Part shown: piece by piece, positions 19,650-31,787 of the stretch
How positions within the stretch are numbered: position 1 is the stretch's first letter
How the letters are laid out: every line of letters begins with the position of its first letter
Assembly (NCBI GenBank): GCA_036496065.1
Contig: DASXLU010000065.1
Span: forward strand, 1 to 56,477
DNA length: 56,477 nucleotides
Direction: 5' to 3'
Source: Candidatus Acidiferrum sp.
Lineage (GTDB): Bacteria; Acidobacteriota; Terriglobia; Acidiferrales; UBA7541
Position numbers and translations under genes: made by a program
The notes under the pieces: generated by a model
Seen by the model: only the letters and a program-made list of their open reading frames with translations
The model's database searches: none
What the model was told of the DNA's origin: nothing

Positions 19650-22600
19650 TTGGTTCCGAATCAAGGACTTCAGGGCATTGCGTTCTTCGAAGCCACGGCT
19701 TGCCTCACCCTCCTCGTTTTATTCCTGCATTTACGGCGCGACAACGGTGAATCTTTCTACCGATTGTGGCTTTTCGGGTGGATTTGCCTGACCATTTCGT
19801 CGTTCAGCGAGTTGGCGATGTATGGCGGCCTGAACGCTGGGTTGCGAGTGGTAGTTTCCTCTGCAAGTGTCGCGGCTCTGATTTTATTCCTTGCGTCGAT
19901 TGTGCAGCTAACCGTGGGTCAACAGCGGTTCTACTGGCCGATGGCATGGCTGGCGACGTTGTTGGTACTCACCACCGGATATGCCGAGAGCAAAGCTCCC
20001 TATTCGCGAGGATTCCACTGGGAGACGTCCATTCTGCAGAGCGTTATCTGTATGGCAACCGGATGGATTCTGTGGAGAGCGTCGACTTCGAAGCAGGGTC
20101 ACGGCGGGAAGCTGCTGGCCGGGGCCTTCGTGCTGCTCGGTTTGAACACGATCAACCGGCCACAATGGTCGCACGATGAAGTGCATTTGCTGCGATTCGC
20201 GTTCGATCATTTTTTGAATGCCAGTCTGGGTATCGGGATGATCGTGTGGCTGCTGGAGTCGGCGCGCACGCGCAGCGAAGAAATCAGCGAAAAGATGCGG
20301 CAGTTCACGATGTTGACGGCTTCCAGTAGCCAAACAGTTTCGCTGCAGGAGTTGCTGAAAAAAGCCTTGATGCAAATTACCGGGAGCCTGGGCGCAACCC
20401 ACGGGATGATCCGCTTGCTGGAAGGCGAAGGCGACGCTGCGGAATTTGTAGCCTGCGCCTCACTGGGCTTTAGTGAAACCTATTTAAAGCAGAACGATCG
20501 CATGCCCTTGCGGCATTCCTGGCTGGAAGAAGTTTTGCCAGAGAAATATCGCCTGGTCCGTTTTGAAGAGGAGAAAGATACCAGGATTCGCCGGAACATG
20601 GCAGAAGCAGGAATAACCCAGTTGATCGCGGTGCCGATGAGAGGCAAGAAGGGCCCGGTGGGCGTACTTTACATCGGAGCGCTGCCCGGTAAGCGTTTTC
20701 ACGATGATGAGTTCACATTCTTGGTGAACGTGACGAATTTCCTGGGCACTACTGTTGAGAACGTCAATCTATTTGAGCAAATCAAAACCGTTCAGCAACA
20801 GTGGGTATACACATTCGATTCGATTGGCGATCCCATCATTGTCCATGACGGCGAAGGGCGGATTGTTCGCACCAATCTGCGCTTAGCCAACCTTTTGGGA
20901 CGCGATTGCCAGTCGGTGGTAGGCCGTTCGGTGCGCGATTTGCTCAGTCCCCGCGAAAATACCTTTCAAATCTGTCCCTATTGCGAAGGGCTTTCGGGAG
21001 AAGCGGATTCGCCGGATCCCTGGCTCCATGGCTATTTTCTCGCGTCAAACTCGAATTTCATGGATCGAGCCGGACAGAATCTGGGCACGATCCATGTGCT
21101 GAAAGACATCACCGACCGAAAAAGAGCGGAAGAAAAATATCGTACGCTGGTAGCAAGTGTCCAGGAAGGTGTGTTTATCGCCACGGCGCAAGGCCGATTC
21201 CTGGATTTTAACGATGCTTTCCTTCGTATTGTGGGATACGACAACCGGGATGAGTTGATGCGCGTGGACATTCCGACTATGTACGTGAATCCGGCTGACC
21301 GTGAGCGATTAACGCGAATCTTGACGGAACATGGCTCCGTCAATGAATTTGAGTTTGACATTCGCCGCACCGACGGCGAAATCCGCACGGTCAGCGAGTC
21401 TTCCATAGCTGTCCGCGATATTGCGGGCAATATCACCGCATACCAGGGTTTCCTGCTGGACGTAACCGAGCGGCGCCGGGCTGAGTATGAGATCCGCAGG
21501 CGCAACCGCGAATTGCTGGTGCTGAATTCCATCGCCGAAACCTTGGCATCCTCTCTGGACCTCAACGACTCCATTCACCGGACCCTGCGACAGATTGTTG
21601 AGTTATTTGCGCTTGATGCCGTGTCGCTGTATGTCTTCGAACGCGACGGCATCACGCTCAAGCGCGTGGCCTCGGTGGGGCAACGCTCGGAATTCGCCAA
21701 GAGTTTTCCCGTAGTAACCATGCCGACCGAATTGATTCAGCAAATTCGTTCGGTGCGCGCAAGTTTCCTGTCCGCGCAAGGACTTCCGTTACCGCCGCTC
21801 GTGCGGGAACTGCAACGAAAAGAAGGTATCGAGTCCTCCTATATCGTGACGCTGTGGTCCAAGGAGAAAATTGTTGGCGGGCTGGCAATAGGGTGCCGCA
21901 GCGCGCGCGAATTCTCGGCTGCCGATATCAGCCTGCTGATTGCTGTGGGTAGTCAGTTGGCCTCCGCCGTCGAACGCAACCAGTTGTATGAAGAAACTCG
22001 CCAGGCGTATGAGAACTTACGCCGCGCGCAGGAACAACTGCTGCACAGCGAAAAGTTGGCAGCCGTCGGACAACTGATTTCGGGTGTGGCGCACGAATTG
22101 AATAATCCGCTGACCGCAATTTTGGGATACAGCCAACTACTCTCCGCAAGCGGACAGGTAGGACCACAGGCGATTGCCTACAGCGAAAAGCTGTACAAGC
22201 AGGCGCAGCGCACACATCGCATCGTGCAAAACTTATTGAGCTTTGCGCGCCAGCACAAACCCGAGCGTGTGCCCGTTCGGCTTAACACCATCGTGGAAGA
22301 TACCCTGGCGCTGCGCGACTACGACTTGCGTATGAGCCAAATTCGGGTTCATCTGGAACTGGCCAGCGACCTGCCTCTGACATCAGCCGATCCTCATCAA
22401 CTGCAGCAGGTATTCTTGAATTTGATTAACAATGCAGTCGATGCGATCCTGGAAACGGAAAGAGAGGGCGATCTGACGGTACGCAGCGGCGCCGCGGGCA
22501 ACAATGTCTTCATTGAATTCAGCGACAGCGGACCTGGCGTGAAGGATGCCACGAGGGTATTCGATCCGTTCTACACGACAAAGCCGGTTGGCAAGGGGAC

Positions 22601-23147
22601 CGGACTCGGACTCAGCATCTGCTACGGAATTATCAGCGAGCATGGCGGTACGATTCAAATTCGGAATGAAAATCCGAAGGGCGCGACGTTTCGCATCGAG
22701 CTGCCACTGCATAGTAAAGCGGGCGGTTCGCGTCCGGCGGAAGCTTCGAAAACGCAATTTTCGGGTGGCGCGCGCATCCTGGTCGTTGATCCTAATGATT
22801 CCGTGCTGGAGACTGTAGCGGGATTGCTGCGTGGTAGTCACTACCGCGTCAAGACATCCAAGTCGCTGGCCGCAGCCCGCAAATTATTTGCAGCTCAAGA
22901 ATTTGATTTGGTGCTGGCAGACTGGCAGTTGGCGTCGACAGCGGAGTCTTCGGACGTAAATGGAAATTCGCAGTCCCTCGGGCTTGGCTCGCGAATTTTG
23001 TGGATGAGTTCCGTGGCGCCCCAAGGCGAGAACAGCCAGTGGCTGCTGCCTGCCAATGACCAGATTCTGCAAAAGCCCTTTCAGGCTAAGGACTTGCTTG
23101 CGGCAGTTGAAGCGAATCTACAGCGCGTCGCCGCAACCTTACTCTGA
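19650..23147 (+). CDS. hybrid sensor histidine kinase (~7TM-GAF-PAS-PAS-GAF-HisKA-HATPase-REC)
   Basis: GVAHELNNPL, QVFLNLINNA, DSGPG, FDPFYTTK..GKGTGLGL; atypical C-terminal REC; TTG start with GGAGAG RBS. Confidence 0.95.
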   Translation: MVPNQGLQGIAFFEATACLTLLVLFLHLRRDNGESFYRLWLFGWICLTISSFSELAMYGGLNAGLRVVVSSASVAALILFLASIVQLTVGQQRFYWPMAWLATLLVLTTGYAESKAPYSRGFHWETSILQSVICMATGWILWRASTSKQGHGGKLLAGAFVLLGLNTINRPQWSHDEVHLLRFAFDHFLNASLGIGMIVWLLESARTRSEEISEKMRQFTMLTASSSQTVSLQELLKKALMQITGSLGATHGMIRLLEGEGDAAEFVACASLGFSETYLKQNDRMPLRHSWLEEVLPEKYRLVRFEEEKDTRIRRNMAEAGITQLIAVPMRGKKGPVGVLYIGALPGKRFHDDEFTFLVNVTNFLGTTVENVNLFEQIKTVQQQWVYTFDSIGDPIIVHDGEGRIVRTNLRLANLLGRDCQSVVGRSVRDLLSPRENTFQICPYCEGLSGEADSPDPWLHGYFLASNSNFMDRAGQNLGTIHVLKDITDRKRAEEKYRTLVASVQEGVFIATAQGRFLDFNDAFLRIVGYDNRDELMRVDIPTMYVNPADRERLTRILTEHGSVNEFEFDIRRTDGEIRTVSESSIAVRDIAGNITAYQGFLLDVTERRRAEYEIRRRNRELLVLNSIAETLASSLDLNDSIHRTLRQIVELFALDAVSLYVFERDGITLKRVASVGQRSEFAKSFPVVTMPTELIQQIRSVRASFLSAQGLPLPPLVRELQRKEGIESSYIVTLWSKEKIVGGLAIGCRSAREFSAADISLLIAVGSQLASAVERNQLYEETRQAYENLRRAQEQLLHSEKLAAVGQLISGVAHELNNPLTAILGYSQLLSASGQVGPQAIAYSEKLYKQAQRTHRIVQNLLSFARQHKPERVPVRLNTIVEDTLALRDYDLRMSQIRVHLELASDLPLTSADPHQLQQVFLNLINNAVDAILETEREGDLTVRSGAAGNNVFIEFSDSGPGVKDATRVFDPFYTTKPVGKGTGLGLSICYGIISEHGGTIQIRNENPKGATFRIELPLHSKAGGSRPAEASKTQFSGGARILVVDPNDSVLETVAGLLRGSHYRVKTSKSLAAARKLFAAQEFDLVLADWQLASTAESSDVNGNSQSLGLGSRILWMSSVAPQGENSQWLLPANDQILQKPFQAKDLLAAVEANLQRVAATLL

Positions 23148-23693
23148 GTAAGAGTGAAGTTCCGAAGCGATAGCGGAACGTTCCGCCATCCTTGTGGTAA
23201 CGGTTTCCAACTGTAAAGTCATAGCGCTGGCCATTTCGGATAGTTTGCTGAATGCCTGCCACGGCGCCAGTCCTAAACGCAATCGCCAACTCAAATACTG
23301 GCAGTGAATCGCAAAACCCATGCTCAATTTAAGGCGCTCCCACTCTCGCATGGCGGCCAGGTCAGGAGCCATCATGGCCAGCACACCTGCGGCTTCGAGA
23401 AGCAATCCGAAATCTTTGTGGAATTCGGCAAGATATCGGAGCGCGATGCGCTTGCGATCGTTTCGAATGCGCCTGACCAAACGCGGTTGGCCACACCTTT
23501 TCAGGAACTCAATATCCTCGGGCCGCAGCGATTGCAGAATTTGCGGAAGATGGTGATAGTGGCGATCCTCTGCGAGAGCTTGCAAGACTTCATCCGCAGA
23601 TCGTGTTTCTTGAATCTGAGGACGCGCTGCCCAGATCAAAAGTGAAATTAAAATCAGGGCAGCCAGCAGAAACAACAAAAAAGTAACAGTCAC
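23139..23693 (-). CDS. hypothetical protein with N-terminal membrane anchor
   Basis: GTG at 23693 overlaps the upstream stop (GTGA) with GGAGG RBS; N-terminal TM followed by a basic helical domain. Confidence 0.8.
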   Translation of the reverse strand: MTVTFLLFLLAALILISLLIWAARPQIQETRSADEVLQALAEDRHYHHLPQILQSLRPEDIEFLKRCGQPRLVRRIRNDRKRIALRYLAEFHKDFGLLLEAAGVLAMMAPDLAAMREWERLKLSMGFAIHCQYLSWRLRLGLAPWQAFSKLSEMASAMTLQLETVTTRMAERSAIASELHSYSE

Positions 23694-24481
23694 GGGTGGG
23701 GATCCTCCGATCGGAGAAGATGAGCTAAGCGATCGTTGAGCACACGGAGGCGCAGATTGATTTGTCCTGACAACGTTCCATAATACTCCGGCGAAAGCTG
23801 AACAGCGCTTGTCGCCAGCCGTTCCACAGGAAAAATACGTACGGCATAGATCCAGATCACCAAGGTTGCCAAAAAGAACAGGATGTCGAGAAAATTCCAC
23901 AAGTTGGAGTACTTTTCGAGCAAAGGCTCAAAAAGCGTGAAATTAACTACGGAAAAGCAAGAGTAAAGGAAAAAGCCGATGGCCAGTATGCGTTCCAGCG
24001 GGAAGACGGGCACGCGGTAATAGCGGGCAAAGAGGAAAAGCAGCACGATGAAGGAAGCGATTGCCAGTTTGAGGCCTCGCTCCATATCCATGACCTTGTA
24101 CTGCAAATTTCCCTGGAAAAAGGTCAGAGAGTACACCAGTACTATCGCACTGGCGACGAGCAGGACCCGCTTTGCCAGTCCCCAGATTCCAGTGAAACCA
24201 GAGAGCATTCTGCGTGCAATTTCGAAACTGGCGAGCCAGCGGGCTCCCGTTAGGAGCAATTGGCTACCCCAGGCAATCCACCAGACCGTTGATCCTCTGA
24301 AACCCCAGGCGTGGTAGACAAAAGCTACCGCCAAACTCTGAAAAATTGCCGCCAGGATGTAAAAGAGAAAGGCTGGATGCGAGCGGTACAATCCTCTATT
24401 TACCAGATAGAACACTAAAACCAGTTCCGTCAACGAGGTAAAAGCCCAAGCAAAGTTGGTGAGCTGTTGAGGATCGGCCAT
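23690..24481 (-). CDS. stand-alone ~7TM membrane protein (putative peptide receptor)
   Basis: About seven hydrophobic segments, C-terminal amphipathic helix INLRLRVLNDRLAHLL, no catalytic domain; receptor role is inference. Confidence 0.8.
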   Translation of the reverse strand: MADPQQLTNFAWAFTSLTELVLVFYLVNRGLYRSHPAFLFYILAAIFQSLAVAFVYHAWGFRGSTVWWIAWGSQLLLTGARWLASFEIARRMLSGFTGIWGLAKRVLLVASAIVLVYSLTFFQGNLQYKVMDMERGLKLAIASFIVLLFLFARYYRVPVFPLERILAIGFFLYSCFSVVNFTLFEPLLEKYSNLWNFLDILFFLATLVIWIYAVRIFPVERLATSAVQLSPEYYGTLSGQINLRLRVLNDRLAHLLRSEDPHP

Positions 24482-24571
24482 TTGACAGCTAGCCTACCAT
24501 AACATAACTGGGCAGTAAATAAACCTTCGGAATAAGGTACTCTTCAGAGCATTAGTAGAATGAGAAAGCTC

Positions 24572-24889
24572 TCAGACCGACAGTTTCGACCCGGGAACTG
24601 CTGTTACAGGTTTCGGCCTCGGTGTGGGAGGAGGCAGCGGCACGCCATCCGCGATGAGAATCTGTGTGGGCTTCGGTTTCGGAGTTGGCGGAGGCAACGG
24701 GACGCCATCCGCAGCCAGCACCGTTCCTGGTTTGTGCGGCGGGGGTGGAGGAAGCGGAACACCGTCTGCTTGTAGAACGCCGCTCTTCACAGCGGGACGA
24801 GCTGAGGAAGAATTGACCGACGCGGAACCCGAAAGTAGGATTAGACTTGCTGGAAACGCGAAACAAATCGTTAGTAATCGTTTTTTCAT
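24572..24889 (-). CDS. secreted peptide precursor with three ADGVPLPPP repeats
   Basis: GGAGAG RBS, MKKR plus hydrophobic signal; three repeats identical in protein but with different codons. Confidence 0.85.
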   Translation of the reverse strand: MKKRLLTICFAFPASLILLSGSASVNSSSARPAVKSGVLQADGVPLPPPPPHKPGTVLAADGVPLPPPTPKPKPTQILIADGVPLPPPTPRPKPVTAVPGSKLSV

Positions 24890-24993
24890 AAGGCACTCTC
24901 CTTGCATTGGAAAGTGCCAGACAAAATCGGTCCTGCCGCGAAACGGCGGAAAAAGTTCCGGCTACGGAACGGAAAGCGTCACAAACCAGCCCG

Positions 24994-25422
24994 ATGCTGA
25001 ATCAGCTAAAAATACACCGGCAGATTCTCTATGACTTGACGGCGCTGCATCTGGAGCCCATGAAAGGGCTTTACGAACGACTGGCATACTTGGCGAGCAT
25101 GCGCGATCCCGGGACCGGGATTTATACGCACAAAAGCCTCAGCCTGCAGTATCCGGCGGATCGCGTCAGCGAAGCGCTCGAACGGTGTCATGAGGAGATA
25201 TTCGAGAAATTGTTGGAATCGCCATTGGCAACCCTGGAGCAGGACTTACGACGTTATTTCGAGGCGATGGCGGGACAAGAAAAGGTGGAAGCAGAGGCGT
25301 GTCAGAGTTTGACCGAGAGTTGGATTCCGCAGCAATCGCCCGACTATCTGCGAGAATTATATTGTTCTAATCAAAGCGCTCTGTGCGCTCTACTGCAGGA
25401 GAACAGGTCCAAGGCTCGGTAA
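24994..25422 (+). CDS. hypothetical cytoplasmic protein
   Basis: ATG 24994 (ORF open from TTG 24907); helical globular sequence with RLAYLASMRD..G.Y.H..L and CHEEIF. Confidence 0.75.
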   Translation: MLNQLKIHRQILYDLTALHLEPMKGLYERLAYLASMRDPGTGIYTHKSLSLQYPADRVSEALERCHEEIFEKLLESPLATLEQDLRRYFEAMAGQEKVEAEACQSLTESWIPQQSPDYLRELYCSNQSALCALLQENRSKAR

Positions 25423-26155
25423 GGTAGCTCACCACTCCCACAACCTGTCCCGCCACTTCCGCTTCTTCCGGTGTCCGCCAAGCTTCCGGGGAACATCGCG
25501 AAAGTGTATGCGGTTGCATAATCAGCCGCGACCGATCTTTCTGGAACCAACCACAACGATAGCCGCCGCGTAGTTCGACAAAATAGAGGGGGCGGTCGTA
25601 TTCACTATTCCATTCGGCGTCTTCGATGCGCCGCTGGGAAGTGTCCACCAGAACGATACTTCCGGGACGCAGGATGGGGCCCATTCGCCGGTCCTCGAGG
25701 CCGATGTAACCGTAGCGGTAGCGGCCTTTAGCGAATCTTTGCAACCCGGGAAATTGGCCGCCAGCGCCGGGAAGGTCGGGCAGCAGATCGGTCTCCTCGG
25801 ATTCGAACGAAGTTGCTATTGAATCAAGGCCGCCATTTGACACAGCCTCTGGCGCGCCCAGGCAGGTCAGGGGAGGAGGCAACCCTGCAGCGTCTTGAAA
25901 GCTGCACTCGAAAGGCACTTCATACCAAGTTGTGATCTGCATGGGATGCAGATGATAGATTGCCGCCATCGAATAAAGTTTGTGCAGGCTTGGAACGACA
26001 TTGCGATTTTCAATGTCTGCCAGGCGGCTGATGTGCAGTATGAATTCTGGACGGCCTCTTCGCGCGGCGATCTCGTAGCTGGCTCGCTCGACATCCCGGT
26101 AGGTGAGTCCTAATTTTTCCCGCGCGCGACGTAGTCGAAGACCTGGTGGATACAT
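25367..26155 (-). CDS. XRE-family HTH regulator with degenerate S24/LexA-like C-terminal domain
   Basis: LRRAREKLGLTYRDV..SRLADIEN HTH; M.PILRPGSIVLVD..GQVVGV resembles the S24 fold; GAAGGG RBS. Confidence 0.85.
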   Translation of the reverse strand: MYPPGLRLRRAREKLGLTYRDVERASYEIAARRGRPEFILHISRLADIENRNVVPSLHKLYSMAAIYHLHPMQITTWYEVPFECSFQDAAGLPPPLTCLGAPEAVSNGGLDSIATSFESEETDLLPDLPGAGGQFPGLQRFAKGRYRYGYIGLEDRRMGPILRPGSIVLVDTSQRRIEDAEWNSEYDRPLYFVELRGGYRCGWFQKDRSRLIMQPHTLSRCSPEAWRTPEEAEVAGQVVGVVSYLTEPWTCSPAVERTERFD

Positions 26156-26302
26156 GCACGTTCCCTTCAGCGCCGCCCGGCCCATCGGATATCTAACTAT
26201 AACAAATTACCAAGTTGTTACGAATGCGGAACAAGATATGGTTGTGGAAAAACGTTGGAAAGTCGATGGCAGATGGCGCAGGTTTGGCGATAGCAGGTGA
26301 CG

Positions 26303-26343
26303 GATATCAGAAGTCGGATATCGGATAACAGATTCAGATAACC
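26303..26343. repeat. GATATC-like heptamer tandem array 1
   Basis: GATATCA GAAGTCG GATATCG GATAACA GATTCA GATAACC. Confidence 0.65.
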
Positions 26344-26507
26344 TAAAGAGCCTGCACTTATGGGCAGACGGGAGAGGTTTCGAATCGAACAACGAGGCTG
26401 CTTCTCGTCTTGTTTCGAAACAGCGCGCATGAAAACCTGCTAGAGACTGAATCCCTGCATAGCCGATAGGCGAGATTCACGATCATGGCTGGCGGTGACA
26501 GATTCCT

Positions 26508-26535
26508 GATATCTGATATTTGATATCGGATAGCG
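26508..26535. repeat. GATATC-like heptamer tandem array 2
   Basis: GATATCT GATATTT GATATCG GATAGCG. Confidence 0.65.
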
Positions 26536-26622
26536 GTAAGAGTCTGCGCGTAACCCTATTATTGCGCTCAGGCATCCTACGAGAGTGCCCAACGACAATC
26601 TGCTATCCTGCTGAACCATACT

Positions 26623-28011
26623 ATGAACAGCACTACACTGTCCTTCTGGCGGAAATATTGTCTTGTCTTCTTATTGGCGTTGACCGCCGCGTTGGTACGC
26701 CCTGCGAATGCTCAGCCGGCTGCGACTGCTCCCGCAGACAATTCGAAAGCCAGTAACGCCGCGGAGTTTGCCGCTACGGCCGATGAAGTGCTTCAAGACA
26801 TGAGCGAAATCACCGGCTGGAAACTGAAGACGCCGCTGAAGAAAACGATTCGCTCCCGGGAAGAAATTCGCGCGTACGTTATCCATCAAATGGACGACGA
26901 CAAGGATGCCAAGGAACGCTACGCTTCCGCGCGCACTGCCGAGGCTTTCGGGCTGGTTCCCAAAGGATTTGATTTCGACGCATTCCTGGTGGATTTGCTC
27001 ACGGAGCAGATCGCGGGCCTCTACGATCCGAAACTGCACGAATTTTATATTGCCGATTGGATCAGTCCGGCGGACCAGCGCATGGTGATGTCGCACGAAC
27101 TGACGCACGCACTGCAAGATCAATATTTTCAGATCGAGCCTTGGGTGAAAGCGGCTCGACCCAATGATGACGCCGAGTTGGCGCGCGAAGCGGTGCTGGA
27201 AGGCAGCGCCATGGCCGGCATGCTCGAGTACATGCTCAAAGACAAAGGGCTGAAGCTCAAGGACCTGCCAGACATAGACCCTTCCGTTTTCGTTGGAGAC
27301 TTGAGCGATACGCCGATGCTCAAGAAGGCGCCGCCATTTATCAAGGATTCGTTGATGTTCCCGTATTTTGCCGGCTTGTCATTTTCTATGACTGTATTGC
27401 GCACGAACGGTTGGGCTGGCTTTAATGCGGTTTTTGCGCGGCCCCCAGCAGACACGCAGCAGATCATGCATCCCGAAATTTATCGCGCGGCGAAAGTGCC
27501 CGCGCCGCTGAAGACGGATCTGGGGCCCAGCGTGCCGGACACCTCCTGGGCGAAGCTGGAAGAAAATTCTCTCGGAGAGTTCGGCGTGAAGGAAGCGCTA
27601 AAACAGTTTCTAGACGAGGAGCGGGCCAAGGGATCGGCGCTCTCTTGGGATGGGGACAGTTACACGACATTCGAACAGAAAGATACAAAGCGCTTGATGC
27701 TGTTTACACGTGTTCGATTTTCCAGCGTCGATGCCGCGGCACATTTCTTTGGGCAATATTCGGAACTGCTGGAAAAAAAGTATCCGGAGCACTCGCATTT
27801 GTTCAGGCGACCCGACTTTTTTACGTTTAGCACGGCGGATAAAAATGTGTTTCTGCGTTGCTTTGAAACGCAATGCATCACGCTGGAGGGCGGCGACCGC
27901 AGCCAGTTTCTTCAGTGGAACAAGCACCTTGGGTGGGAAGCCATACCAGAAGAGCCGAGAAAGCCCGGCGGGCCGGATGTTACCAGTACACAATTGCTGT
28001 TCGCAAAATAA
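26623..28011 (+). CDS. secreted putative zinc metallopeptidase (HEXXH)
   Basis: Signal peptide (..PANA/Q); AGLYDP, SHELTHALQDQ, downstream AVLEGSA third-ligand-like Glu, FPYFAG. Confidence 0.8.
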   Translation: MNSTTLSFWRKYCLVFLLALTAALVRPANAQPAATAPADNSKASNAAEFAATADEVLQDMSEITGWKLKTPLKKTIRSREEIRAYVIHQMDDDKDAKERYASARTAEAFGLVPKGFDFDAFLVDLLTEQIAGLYDPKLHEFYIADWISPADQRMVMSHELTHALQDQYFQIEPWVKAARPNDDAELAREAVLEGSAMAGMLEYMLKDKGLKLKDLPDIDPSVFVGDLSDTPMLKKAPPFIKDSLMFPYFAGLSFSMTVLRTNGWAGFNAVFARPPADTQQIMHPEIYRAAKVPAPLKTDLGPSVPDTSWAKLEENSLGEFGVKEALKQFLDEERAKGSALSWDGDSYTTFEQKDTKRLMLFTRVRFSSVDAAAHFFGQYSELLEKKYPEHSHLFRRPDFFTFSTADKNVFLRCFETQCITLEGGDRSQFLQWNKHLGWEAIPEEPRKPGGPDVTSTQLLFAK

Positions 28012-28027
28012 TCCGCAATACCTTTGA

Positions 28028-29350
28028 CTAGCCGGTACGCGCTGTGGACGTTAGCAGGGGGCAATCCTCTGCAATTCCGCGGCGCATTTCCAGGCGTTTG
28101 ATTCGTTGCCGGAATTTCTCCTGCGCGCGAGCGACACGTGTAGAGGCGTAGGGATCGCGTGAGAGTTTCTGCACGCGGGCTAATTTGGCGAGCGCGAGGT
28201 TTGCATATTCCAGCGCACGCGCAAAATCACGCTTGTGCCGCTCGTAGTGAATCGCCAGTTGCTCGCATGCGGTGACGCCGTCCTGCGGATCGCTTACCAG
28301 TTCGAGCCAGAGCGCGGCGGATTTTTCCCGGTCACCGCGCCGTCTGGCCATATATGCCAGGTCACGAGTCGCTTGAGAGCGAAATTCGGCGGGCAAGCCG
28401 GTGTCCAGCGCCTTGGCACAAGTAGAATGTGCGCGGTCGCGTTCGCCGCGGCGATGCAGGAATTTCGAAAGGCCGAACAGGTCCAGCGAGTCCATGTCTT
28501 CGAATCCGGCTTCGCGCTCATCCAACAACGTATTAATTTTTCCGTAAAGCGCCGCTAGTCCGCGCAGGTCCATCTGATTGTGTTTGACTACGCCCGCCAG
28601 CGGATCGGCGCGGCCTCCGCGCAAATAATCGAAATAAAATTGCGGGATTAAGGCGGACGAAACGTCATCACCACGATGCCAACCGAGCCTCTGCGCATCG
28701 ATGACGTGGCGTTCGAGTTCGACCAGCCGGACGGAGCCGAGGCGCAGCCTCCAAAGCGCACGCGCGGGATGCAGCAGGTCGAGGTGGGCGGCAAGTTGCG
28801 GCACTTTGATAGTACGGGTCATGGTGAAGCGATTTTCCAGCAGCGGCCAGTCAAAGGTCTTGCCATTGAAGGTGACGAGGACGGGCCGTTCCGCAAGGCG
28901 TGCGGCCAATTCATGCAGAATCGAGTGTTCCTCGGAAAAATCGCGGAGAAATAATTGCTCTATTTGCAGGCCGCCGGCTTCCCACCAGGCGAGGCCAATC
29001 AGGAATGCATAAGTGCCGGTTCCTCCGGCGAGACCAGTTGTCTCGGTGTCCAGAAAGAGCCACTTATCCGGATTGTGCAAAGCCGTGCGCGTGCGGCGGG
29101 AAAGGGATTCGTCCCGAGTTCGCGAAAGCAGTTCCAGTGCTATGGGGGAAGGATCACTGAATTCTGGAGTGGCGAACCAGTTTCGAATGGAAAGGTGTTC
29201 GCCATAATGATTCCGCGCGATGGCGGCACCAAGTAAGCGGCCCAGCGGATCTACCTCATCGGGCGCACGCAAATCGGCAGGCTTCGACGAAACGCCACGC
29301 GCAGGTTTGAGCGCCGATAATCTGGAGAATTTGTCAGCCAGTAGGCTCAT
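28028..29350 (-). CDS. mrfB: RNase H-like (DEDD) exonuclease with TPR-like C-terminus, YprB/MrfB family
   Basis: FLDTETTGL, TFNGKTFD, HLDLLH, HNQMDL; LAIHYE TPR-like region; directly downstream of the helicase. Confidence 0.88.
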   Translation of the reverse strand: MSLLADKFSRLSALKPARGVSSKPADLRAPDEVDPLGRLLGAAIARNHYGEHLSIRNWFATPEFSDPSPIALELLSRTRDESLSRRTRTALHNPDKWLFLDTETTGLAGGTGTYAFLIGLAWWEAGGLQIEQLFLRDFSEEHSILHELAARLAERPVLVTFNGKTFDWPLLENRFTMTRTIKVPQLAAHLDLLHPARALWRLRLGSVRLVELERHVIDAQRLGWHRGDDVSSALIPQFYFDYLRGGRADPLAGVVKHNQMDLRGLAALYGKINTLLDEREAGFEDMDSLDLFGLSKFLHRRGERDRAHSTCAKALDTGLPAEFRSQATRDLAYMARRRGDREKSAALWLELVSDPQDGVTACEQLAIHYERHKRDFARALEYANLALAKLARVQKLSRDPYASTRVARAQEKFRQRIKRLEMRRGIAEDCPLLTSTARTG

Positions 29351-29363
29351 CGCTCGCGTTCCA

Positions 29364-31787
29364 TCAGGCGCACAGCCGATCGAGGATTGCCAGTGCCGCC
29401 TCTTTCGCTCGAGGCGCCAAATCTCCCGCCGGACCAACGCACGACGGGCATCCTTGTTCACACGGACACGCCAGAATGAGTTCTCTGGTTTTGCGTATCA
29501 GCAATTCGTGGACCCGGAATAGCGGCTCGGAAAACCCGATGCCGCCGGGATACGCGTCGTACAAATATAAGTTGGGCTCGAAGAATTCCTTCGCCTGCGT
29601 CCCCACAACATCTTCCATTCTGACGGGCGCATACTCGTCGCCTTCCGCGCCGGGACTTGGAGGACGCTCGCCGACGGCCGTCCCCAAATCGCGTCCATCG
29701 CACATCAATAAAAGCGTGGCGACGGACTCCATGGCGTGCAGCAAGCCAAACATCCCGGATTGTCGTTCGCTGACGGAGTAGGGCAGCGATTCGATCATCT
29801 GGCGCTCCAGCGTCAACCAGTACGACGTGGTATGCATTTCGTTTTCCGGAAGCTCGAGCTTTCCCGAGCCCACGTTTTCGTTGGTGAAAAATTTGATCTT
29901 CTTGAATCCGACCACTTGCGAACGCACCAGCACGTCGCCGTGCGAACGTGTTGCGGGGATTTGCGCATTCTCGTCGCTGGATGGGGCAGTGGCGGCGACC
30001 TCGAGTACACGCACCTGTGTGTAGCGGACCGCGTCGGTGTAGTAGTCCACGTTTACTTGCTTCACGTAAGCTTTGCGTTCTTTGAAGTCCAGATGCTCCA
30101 CGTGATATTGCTGGCCGCCGTGGATGTAAATCGCTTTCTCATGCACGAAAACCAGCGCACTAGGGAAATCGATTTCGCCGATCGCGCGCGGCTCGCCGGT
30201 AATGTCGATAATTACAAAATTATCGCTGGTGACCGCGCGCAGACTGATCGTGTCCGCTGGGTAAGCTTGCTGAGTCCAGTGATAATTTTCGCCCGCCAGA
30301 TGCACATAGCCGGCGTCGGCTAGGCGAGCACAAAGGTCCCGCAAATCGACTTCGCCATATTTTTCGCCGGGACCGATCGGAAGTTCGAACGCCGCACACT
30401 TCAGATGATTGACCAGAATTTCGAGGTTGTCTGGCTGGATGAAGGCATGTTCCGGCGTGTTTCCAAAGAAATAATCGGGATGCCGCACGATGTACTGGTC
30501 GAGCGGGGCCGACGATGCGACCATCACCGCACAAGAACTTCCGCTGCGCCGTCCCGCTCGCCCGGCACGCTGCCAGGTAGCCGCAATGGTTCCCGGATAA
30601 CCCGCCATCACCACGGTATCGAGCGAACCGACGTCGATGCCGAGTTCCAGCGCAGAGGTGGACACCACACCGCGAATCCGGCCATCGCGCAAGCCGCGCT
30701 CGATTTCACGCCTTTCGTTGGGAAGATAGCCGCCGCGATAGCCGCGAATGGCCTCAGGCTTTCCGGGCAACCGCGGATTCGCCTGCTGCAAATAGGTAAG
30801 AATGATCTCCGTGTGCAGGCGTGAATTTGCGAAGACGATGGTTTGCAGATCGTGCTTCAGGAATTCCTGCGCCACTCGAGACGCTTCGTTGATGTAACTG
30901 CGGCGAATGCCCAAAGCGCGGTTGACCACCGGCGGATTGTAGAACACCAAGGTTTTCTCAGCGGCTGGAGCGCCATTTTCCGCCTGAACTTCGACGCTGT
31001 CTTCGATCAGGCGCGAGGCCAATTCTCCGGGATTGGCAATGGTTGCCGAACAGCAAATGAACTGCGGCTCGCGTCCATAAAATCTCGCAATACGGCGCAG
31101 CCTGCGCAGCACATTGCACAAATGGCTGCCAAACACGCCGCGGTACGTGTGCAGTTCGTCAATCACGATGTAGCGCAAATTTTCGAACAGGCGAGTCCAG
31201 CGCGTATGATGCGGCAGGATGCCCGTGTGCAGCATGTCTGGATTGGTGAGCGCGATGTGGCTCTTTTCACGGATTGCCTTGCGCGCGTCGCTGGGAGTGT
31301 CGCCATCATAGGTGAAAACGCCGAAGCGATTGTCCAGCCGCTGGTTCAAATCGTGCAACTCCGTGAGTTGATCTTGCGCCAGCGCTTTAGTGGGGAAGAG
31401 GTAAAGCGCGCGCGTATCGGTGTCCTTCAGAATTGCGTCGAGGACCGGCAGGTTGTAGCACAGCGTTTTGCCCGATGCGGTTGGCGTCACGATCACGACG
31501 TTCTTGCCGGCGTGTACGGCTTCGGCGGCCGCAGCCTGGTGGGTATATAACTGGCGAATTCCCTTGGCTTGATAGGCGCCACGCAGGTCTGGATGCATCC
31601 ATTCGGGGAATTCCGCCCATTGCGCAGTGCGGGCAGGGTAGTGACGGACCGCGGTTAGCATCTCACCCGAGCGGTCGCGTTCGACGAAGCCGTCGAGCAC
31701 TTGAGTGACGCGAGTGAGCGACGAGGAAGCGGCCGCGTGGTGCGGGGAAGAAGAGGTCGCGGGACGCACGGCGAGCGAGTCGGACAT
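29364..31787 (-). CDS. mrfA: DEAD/DEAH helicase with DUF1998, YprA/MrfA family
   Basis: TPTASGKT, DELH, SATIAN, LELGIDVG, QRAGRAGR; C-terminal C..YDAYPGGIG..CPCEQGCPSC. Confidence 0.93.
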   Translation of the reverse strand: MSDSLAVRPATSSSPHHAAASSSLTRVTQVLDGFVERDRSGEMLTAVRHYPARTAQWAEFPEWMHPDLRGAYQAKGIRQLYTHQAAAAEAVHAGKNVVIVTPTASGKTLCYNLPVLDAILKDTDTRALYLFPTKALAQDQLTELHDLNQRLDNRFGVFTYDGDTPSDARKAIREKSHIALTNPDMLHTGILPHHTRWTRLFENLRYIVIDELHTYRGVFGSHLCNVLRRLRRIARFYGREPQFICCSATIANPGELASRLIEDSVEVQAENGAPAAEKTLVFYNPPVVNRALGIRRSYINEASRVAQEFLKHDLQTIVFANSRLHTEIILTYLQQANPRLPGKPEAIRGYRGGYLPNERREIERGLRDGRIRGVVSTSALELGIDVGSLDTVVMAGYPGTIAATWQRAGRAGRRSGSSCAVMVASSAPLDQYIVRHPDYFFGNTPEHAFIQPDNLEILVNHLKCAAFELPIGPGEKYGEVDLRDLCARLADAGYVHLAGENYHWTQQAYPADTISLRAVTSDNFVIIDITGEPRAIGEIDFPSALVFVHEKAIYIHGGQQYHVEHLDFKERKAYVKQVNVDYYTDAVRYTQVRVLEVAATAPSSDENAQIPATRSHGDVLVRSQVVGFKKIKFFTNENVGSGKLELPENEMHTTSYWLTLERQMIESLPYSVSERQSGMFGLLHAMESVATLLLMCDGRDLGTAVGERPPSPGAEGDEYAPVRMEDVVGTQAKEFFEPNLYLYDAYPGGIGFSEPLFRVHELLIRKTRELILACPCEQGCPSCVGPAGDLAPRAKEAALAILDRLCA

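Follow-up and report, generated by a model that had tools for sequence, protein, structure and literature searches.

A conserved five-gene module of Acidobacteriota with a repeat-peptide precursor and a stand-alone seven-transmembrane protein, a candidate peptide-sensing system

The locus and its peptide precursor

Contig DASXLU010000065.1 of Candidatus Acidiferrum sp. (assembly GCA_036496065.1), analyzed here over its whole length of 56,477 nucleotides (nt) and called the window below, carries five adjoining genes which we propose to form a peptide-sensing module: a secreted repeat-peptide precursor, a seven-transmembrane (7TM) protein, a membrane-anchored partner, a small orphan protein and a regulator of the XRE family. 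An earlier reading made from the letters alone (the sequence-only reading) had already grouped these genes, and every open reading frame (ORF) that it named was found where it had placed it. The genes and sites of the proposed module are:

24572..24889, minus strand: secreted precursor with three identical DGVPLPPP cores (ORF list, translation)
24766-24743, 24709-24686 and 24649-24626, minus strand: core codons (DGVPLPPP) of the precursor, with Ala before each
23690..24481, minus strand: stand-alone 7TM protein with a fold of G-protein-coupled receptor (GPCR)/rhodopsin type in its AlphaFold2 (AF2) model, predicted receptor
23139..23693, minus strand: partner with an N-terminal transmembrane (TM) anchor and a cytoplasmic four-helix bundle, predicted transducer (model)
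24994..25422, plus strand: orphan, soluble, 142 amino acids (aa), predicted co-regulator/anti-repressor (linkage to the XRE and 7TM genes)
25367..26155, minus strand: XRE regulator with HTH_31 and a weakly S24/cI-like C-terminal domain (Pfam, profile alignment)
24955..24970, no strand: palindrome GTTCCG-N4-CGGAAC, likely XRE operator, between the peptide and orphan starts
26217..26232, no strand: second palindrome copy GTTACG-N4-CGGAAC, likely autoregulatory operator, 62 nt 5' of the XRE start
24892..24918, minus strand: hairpin pairing the ribosome-binding site of the peptide gene (folding, comparison with relatives)

The peptide and orphan genes start 105 nt apart, the partner start overlaps the 7TM stop through GTGA, and the 3' end of the orphan overlaps the convergent XRE gene by 56 nt, an overlap kept in 131 of 134 pairs (duplicates included). 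No homology was found between the module's own proteins, and a search of Pfam and NCBIfam gave a match worth naming for only one of the five, the XRE protein (HTH_31, E 5e-5 in Pfam). The partner (184 aa) is modeled by AF2 with a predicted local distance difference test score (pLDDT) of 87, and its fold search returned generic four-helix bundles only, the best of which (Z 11.2) is a designed protein. For the orphan, in which H46, H66, Y44 and R37 are conserved, there was no sequence match in PDB and no usable match in Atlas, and its model is poor.

The precursor has 105 aa from an ATG behind a GGAGAG ribosome-binding site (an ATG at 24907 would give 111 aa). It possesses a single hydrophobic stretch, situated N-terminally, and its signal peptide was judged from this stretch and the basic N-terminus. 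The three cores, at residues 42, 61 and 81, are identical in protein sequence while their synonymous codons differ. Closely related precursors (86, three picked ORFs being coreless) hold 237 cores, 1-7 per gene, with Ala at position -1 in 180, Asp at +1 in 207, Pro at +4 in 219 and Pro at +6 in 223. Core identity is 0.96 inside precursors and 0.66 between them, where 39 core types were distinguished. In the 68 multi-copy precursors the codon differences between cores are 1140 synonymous to 86 non-synonymous, against 169 to 780 in the spacers; by this comparison the cores are under strong purifying selection. Since DG or DN comes straight after an A-x-A-like site ending the hydrophobic stretch in five short distant precursors (L188, L193, L196, L202, L204), a free N-terminal Asp is suggested to mark the mature peptide. 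Cores of other clades read xGGxPxPPTPW, VPIGPVHLPPP or MSPASPHPVPPP, or belong to two-Cys types such as PMCxPxDPNxC. In L138/L189, L176, L177, L181 and L207 whole peptide genes, up to four, stand in tandem before the 7TM gene and replace the intragenic repeats, and upstream peptides of L146 and L190 carry GGNPHP and GGTDPEP cores.

A peptide that is predicted to be secreted, diverges fast and has two membrane proteins as neighbors could also be a bacteriocin-like antagonistic effector, with the 7TM protein and the partner as its immunity proteins under control of the XRE regulator, and the co-variation of peptide and 7TM protein given below would fit such a pair. We consider this very unlikely: the cores are short, Asp-led and poly-Pro, neither cationic nor amphipathic, and in 73 of the 77 close loci the module occupies the same place in the chromosome, with no relative in the plasmid and viral-contig collections searched. 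Rfam gave no match.

The hairpin at the ribosome-binding site of the peptide gene is strong in the window (z -5.25), and the site is paired in 56/84 close and 18/35 distant loci compared to 40/150 control genes. Covariation in this hairpin was not above that of shuffles, and a functional element is a possibility. A scan for sigma-70 promoters gave chance level only.

Linkage of the five genes across Acidobacteriota

The 7TM family counts 195 matches among 90% clusters and 1676 among 50% representatives. Within the genus, 34 of 36 genomes carry it. A broader profile recovers it in 41/301 genomes of the phylum (the unpublished genome G107 included), to which a single other family contributes 22 of its 24 genomes; relatives with a name are mostly metagenome-assembled genomes of Acidiferrales. 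A second 7TM copy, 26% identical, lies on another contig of the window's genome; a single-core precursor of its own (AEGTVPPP) accompanies it, and so does an ATGA-coupled partner truncated where the contig ends.

Among the 77 loci of the close clade, a count that includes short contigs, the partner is kept in 65, the orphan in 72, the XRE gene in 69, the HEXXH gene in 65, a neighboring kinase in 73 and a YprB-like gene in 59. Because the whole region is syntenic there, members and bystanders cannot be told apart within the close clade; distant 7TM homologues lie at other chromosomal sites, which makes the two distinguishable. Linkage was counted over 170 distinct 7TM genes, dropping from each denominator the loci with too little flank. 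In the close clade (97 genes) the peptide gene was found in 86/93, the partner in 94/95, the orphan in 85/86 and the XRE gene in 83/86. The corresponding distant figures (73 genes, one of them from a close-clade locus, L155) are 41/70 for the peptide, 36/67 for a downstream TM-anchored ORF, 21/56 for the orphan and 23/56 for XRE. The peptide filter used, a signal-peptide ORF with a Pro/Cys core upstream of the 7TM gene, was positive at 12 of 221 multi-TM ORFs of the window's genome, two of the 12 being the cassettes described here. The sequence-only reading had proposed to check whether peptide ORF, partner, orphan and XRE gene are recurrent neighbors of 7TM homologues, and this they are.

At 12 loci (L110-112, 114, 115, 117-120, 124, L195 and L281) the genes follow a second order (order B, as opposed to order A of the window), peptide>7TM>partner>orphan><XRE, which indicates that XRE and orphan stay with the other three genes, the trio, through rearrangement. 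Furthermore, 14 of 16 orphan matches in the 301 genomes adjoin both an XRE and a 7TM gene, and 15 of 19 full-length XRE matches adjoin a 7TM gene. On this comparative evidence peptide, 7TM protein, partner, orphan and XRE regulator are a conserved five-gene module of Acidobacteriota, situated at unrelated chromosomal sites and in two gene orders. The second cassette of the window's genome (L002, G000:C304:1-1172) is of order-B type by likeness to L111, and its operator is apparently reduced to a half-site.

Other clades have the trio beside other regulators, or a 7TM protein with a longer tail and no partner, hence the output of the module is probably modular across clades. Some 7TM clades lie beside a different XRE-like protein (L198, L203, L216, L218, L222), and in others the 7TM gene is next to a protein that by eye ends in a Fis-like helix-turn-helix (HTH) or is a LuxR-like regulator (L213, L220; L127, L194, L199). 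Some loci of other clades carry two tandem 7TM genes. Neither a recurring processing or export neighbor of AgrB or ComAB type was met among 600 ORFs of 64 loci, nor a recurring GTPase among the ORFs of the loci surveyed.

The seven-transmembrane protein, the regulator and its candidate operator

The AF2 model of the 7TM protein (263 aa, pLDDT 82) has seven long helices and a C-terminal helix (residues 231-257) predicted to be cytoplasmic. Simple hydropathy recovers five of the seven, and neither Pfam nor NCBIfam gave a match. The earlier remark that the protein lacks an enzymatic output agrees with our data: it has no fused output domain and homologous frames are about 230-345 aa long, no fused longer form scored in a (weak) search of longer proteins and none is fused in the loci inspected. 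Among the 50 matches listed, structural neighbors of the model are nearly all GPCRs, GPR155/LYCHOS or rhodopsins. GPR155/LYCHOS is the best (Z 13.2, root-mean-square deviation (rmsd) 4.9, 210 residues aligned) and the list goes down to Z 10.4, with V2R at Z 12.0, adhesion and class B GPCRs, and rhodopsins at Z 10.8. Taken together, GPCRs are matched at Z 10-13 with 4-12% identity and rhodopsins score alike. In Atlas, a cluster from Gemmatimonadota resembles the 7TM protein at TM-score 0.64. In its predicted structure the 7TM protein thus shares the GPCR/rhodopsin architecture, from which ancestry does not follow.

The predicted topology is N-out/C-in, as the odd loops are rich in K/R (p 0.002). 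The outer half of the protein is more variable than the inner half (p 4e-7), and the conserved surface faces the cytoplasm, the side of the partner bundle. Across the family, conservation of 90% or more is limited to E87, G169 and W210. It could be argued that the 7TM protein is a processing enzyme, a transporter or a channel for the peptide and that the XRE regulator senses something else: polar residues are conserved inside the membrane (E87 throughout the family, R81 and R135 within the close clade), substrate specificity would likewise make peptide and 7TM protein co-vary, and no other processing enzyme is linked. The three family-wide residues include no catalytic set of His, Asp, Ser or Cys, however, the fold neighbors are receptors, and the conserved surface is cytoplasmic. 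We therefore judge such a role improbable, and a receptor for the peptide remains the function that we favor.

The co-variation of peptide and 7TM protein that had been proposed as a check was indeed found. Across the 56 loci that retain every part intact, the correlation of core distance is stronger with the outer half of the 7TM protein (rho 0.28) than with the inner half (0.12). After controlling all other columns and the leader, and with relatedness of the loci partly controlled, the partial r for core and outer half is 0.26 (n=56 loci), a value reached by 0/300 rate-matched column sets from other proteins and by 0/500 permutations. The leading columns (49, 53, 56, 16, 7 and 70) lie together on the outer portions of helices 1-3. 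A complex prediction of the 7TM protein with precursor residues 36-76 scored 0.01 and is counted neither way.

The same data bear on the possibility of self-monitoring, in which the peptide never leaves the periplasm and the producing cell reads from it how leaky its envelope is, how active its proteases are or how heavy its secretion load is. A diderm host would trap a Sec-exported peptide there, the module has no dedicated exporter, and the apparent regulon is the cassette only. But 39 core types between species, identity of cores within precursors and co-variation with the receptor are what is expected of kin-specific signals. Self-monitoring would not require such diversity of cores, and a like intragenic duplication is described for Rap-Phr in the excerpt of PMC5199041 consulted. 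We hold self-monitoring to be unlikely, if worth keeping in mind, and return to a peptide that may be sensed between cells.

The C-terminal domain of the XRE regulator weakly resembles LexA S24 (hhalign E 0.0012, probability 20%); elsewhere in the XRE set an S24 match was seen in 2 of 22 members at E 0.19 and in 1 of 4 XRE proteins at E 0.05. Where the catalytic Ser and Lys would align, the window's protein has Arg and Gly, and other members likewise lack Ser/Lys there; for this reason RecA-type self-cleavage is, judging by these residues, unlikely. Control by a partner protein would then be the natural alternative. The linker at about residues 80-140 (RFDPxF...RMVExWG) is conserved in distant members and degenerate in the subclade of the window. 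At L278, L279 and L282 proteins of about 530-560 aa with a weak match to this XRE family lie beside a second recurring long ORF. Partial correlations of 0.37 each hint at co-divergence of partner and orphan, of partner and XRE C-terminal domain, and of orphan and XRE linker; these values come without a null test and are not counted as evidence.

GTTCCG-N4-C(G/A)GAAC lies upstream of 84 of the 86 close peptide genes, and for 61 genes its distance from the start is 80-90 nt. The copy at 24955-24970 is the best-scoring site of the 3.9-Mb genome (G000) and the one at 26217-26232 the fourth best, while the chance expectation in the window is 0.08. Sites of at least 17 bits number 10 in this genome (66% complete) compared to 2 in the shuffle. 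A matrix built from the peptide side only detects the XRE-side copy in 45/63 close loci and in 0 coding controls. The site also changes together with the recognition helix of the regulator: order-B loci (XRE helix ISNAWLTQ) have GGTTGG-N4-CCAACC at the matching place, and L113 and L116 (ISAARL) have GTTCAG-N4-CTGAAC before both peptide and XRE genes. In distant loci a 6-4-6 site, sought by a regular expression written after inspection and matching a poor site in 1 of 18 (L209), occurs in 18/21 with XRE and in 0/20 without; generic palindromes occur in 15/21 and 7/20, respectively. L058 has lost XRE, operator and core together, and L049 is without XRE and without a detectable peptide. Because the palindrome follows changes of the XRE recognition helix and did not turn up at loci without XRE, we take it to be the likely operator of XRE, which would complete an autoregulatory loop.

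Alternatively, the trio could sense a signal while XRE and orphan form a separate co-resident module and the palindrome is a terminator or the site of another regulator. Many trio loci are without XRE, solo XREs exist, and the palindrome of the window had been flagged as terminator-like. We regard this as scarcely probable. The linkage outlasts rearrangement. The palindrome retains letters rather than pairing (four of six pairs invariant, one pair broken in 8/21), which makes a terminator unlikely; besides, its distance is constant, it reappears before XRE, its letters follow the XRE helix, and six LexA-like genes have no such site around them (best 6.9 bits). The operator of a single five-gene circuit therefore remains our reading of it.

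Proposed circuit, known systems and neighboring genes

From these results the five-gene module can be seen, with fair but not high probability, as a kinase-free peptide-sensing loop running from peptide through 7TM protein and partner/orphan to XRE. The precursor would be exported by Sec and cut after Ala, giving free Asp-Gly-x-Pro-x-Pro-Pro-Pro peptides that may bind the outer half of the GPCR-fold protein. Partner bundle and orphan would relay the signal to XRE, which would control the peptide operon, the orphan and its own gene via the palindromes. Multiple cores would boost signal output and species-specific cores would confer kin specificity. A particular relay is more doubtful and we put it forward tentatively: the orphan could be a membrane-held anti-repressor of an XRE protein that is a cI-like repressor incapable of self-cleavage. 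The cytoplasmic bundle of the partner might retain the orphan at the membrane until the peptide binds the 7TM protein, and its release would de-repress the operon and lead to autoinduction. The signal/receptor/transducer/regulator cassette of the sequence-only reading is thus retained in part, strengthened by five-gene linkage in two orders, the 7TM fold, the peptide/7TM co-variation and the likely XRE operator, which it had not noted, and has to part with its peptidase and heptamer arrays.

Several observations weigh against this interpretation. The loci share kinship and hence are not independent. In the flanks fetched, the peptide was undetected at 29/70 distant 7TM genes, the partner at 31/67 and XRE at 33/56, 4/19 full-length XRE matches are solitary, and one XRE and orphan pair (L272) has no 7TM gene within 9 kb. 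No processing protease is encoded within the module. The cores were picked by a Pro-rich regular expression, which inflates their conservation, and the distant operators by the expression mentioned above. The XRE-side operator copy is present in 0/11 order-B loci and missing from 7/14 distant order-A loci, and no convincing regulon emerged beyond the cassette, most of the remaining high-scoring sites of G000 falling within ORFs. The S24 likeness of XRE is weak. The best Foldseek match of the 7TM model has E 0.03 and none reaches 0.001, and its Z scores lie in a range which unrelated helical bundles can reach. In all, the interpretation rests on sequence comparison and predicted structures.

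Agr (AgrBDCA) and ComCDE or ComQXPA systems have a peptide gene next to a multi-TM sensor, allelic peptides and autoinduction. The module shares with them the adjoining of peptide gene and multi-TM protein, the diversity of peptides and, by prediction, autoinduction. In contrast to these systems it has neither a histidine kinase, fused to the 7TM protein or separate, nor a cognate response regulator (XRE has no receiver domain), and no AgrB/ComAB-type neighbor recurs in the 64 loci; it has a Sec-type signal peptide, multi-copy cores, a TM-anchored helical partner plus a soluble orphan, and a diderm host. RRNPP systems (Rap-Phr, NprR-NprX) resemble it in a signal peptide with a small core, duplication of cores and an HTH regulator nearby, and their small Sec-type propeptide beside a regulator is also present here. 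Both intragenic and whole-gene core duplication are described for Rap-Phr in the part of PMC5199041 seen. Unlike in RRNPP systems, no TPR family was found in the module's XRE (22 members), orphan or partner, and the peptide co-varies with the outer face of a membrane protein, which makes re-import appear unnecessary.

The fungal alpha-factor precursor is secreted and holds tandem identical cores. Together with the stand-alone 7TM receptor Ste2, a class D GPCR, it offers a parallel in precursor and receptor architecture, although the junctions of the module's cores (-2/-1) are hydrophobic-Ala before Asp-Gly, without dibasic Kex2 sites. Ste2 aligns with the 7TM model at Z 10.5 (rmsd 4.7, 209 aligned, TM-score 0.57, 10% identity) and is not singled out among GPCRs; there is no sequence similarity to it and no G protein in the module. 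Repressors of cI/LexA type with anti-repressors share an HTH joined to a domain that in XRE is weakly S24-like, palindromic operators and, as proposed here, autoregulation and control by a partner, whereas the module's XRE is without catalytic Ser/Lys and is linked to a peptide and a 7TM protein. Among membrane-sequestration switches are LytTR regulatory systems and ExsACDE; unlike them, the module has no LytTR or AraC domain. Seven-helix bacterial receptors of the 7TMR-DISM type are fused to output domains (PMC6107284, in the excerpt at hand). One is an Atlas structural neighbor of the 7TM model at TM-score 0.52, below the bar at which the tool names a family; PF07695 was matched by 0/56 7TM members at E <= 0.1, and no kinase, GGDEF or extracellular domain is joined to the module's protein.

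According to the excerpt of PMC10075063 consulted, known bacterial peptide signaling relies on kinase sensors or on imported-peptide TPR receptors, mostly in Gram-positive bacteria, and peptide quorum sensing has two main categories; the module fits neither of the two as set out there. No description of the module was found in the literature searched (mostly open-access), in accordance with the earlier impression that this is not a described system, and no communication system in Acidobacteria surfaced in that literature. On this basis the module is real and undescribed, and a wholly new category if the signaling reading holds. It could plausibly represent a third class of bacterial peptide signaling, a view to which we lean somewhat less than to the sensing loop itself: one in a diderm phylum, with multi-copy hormone-like precursors and stand-alone GPCR-fold receptors, without kinase, second messenger or G protein, in which a helical adaptor and an anti-repressor would act on a disarmed cI-type regulator. 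Its receptor clades would read poly-Pro or disulfide peptides, plug into different regulators and be candidate relatives of eukaryotic receptors.

In soil, Acidobacteria belong to the most abundant bacteria. Should the 7TM protein bind the peptide, it would be a minimal receptor with a GPCR-type fold in bacteria whose output does not run through a G protein, with bearing on the origin of 7TM peptide receptors and with many orthogonal peptide/receptor pairs. The module offers candidate ligand sequences, a receptor, a reporter-ready promoter site and natural variants of specificity.

The remaining features around the module are:

26623..28011, plus strand: secreted HEXXH protein, HELTH at residue 158 (ORF translation)
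about 26301-26335 and 26499-26533: heptamer arrays of GATATC type (repeat inspection)
19650..23147, plus strand: hybrid histidine kinase with TM input, GAF, PAS, HisKA, HATPase and receiver
28028..31787, minus strand: RNase_H_2/TPR protein (Pfam), beside a DEAD-box-like helicase

The HEXXH protein, earlier taken for the peptidase of the cassette, does not belong to it, being present in 0/45 distant loci. Its family occurs in 150/301 genomes of the phylum (unpublished G205 and G083 included) compared to 41/301 for the 7TM family, mostly far from cassettes, in mostly one copy per genome and unlinked outside this family. As a linked processing peptidase it was rejected; action in trans is possible. 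The protein has a below-cutoff match to Hvo_1808-family surface proteins. The kinase and the YprB-like gene were also rejected as module parts, being present in 73 and 59 of the 77 close loci yet not conserved neighbors distantly. The kinase gene is convergent with the partner gene (9-nt overlap), and by profile comparison its TM domain does not resemble the 7TM family (probability 1.1). The RNase_H_2/TPR gene and the helicase together resemble the YprA/YprB pair. The heptamer arrays, once included in the cassette, are missing from 61/61 related spacers between XRE and HEXXH genes, and four arrays similar to them lie elsewhere in G000 (C170, C184, C245).

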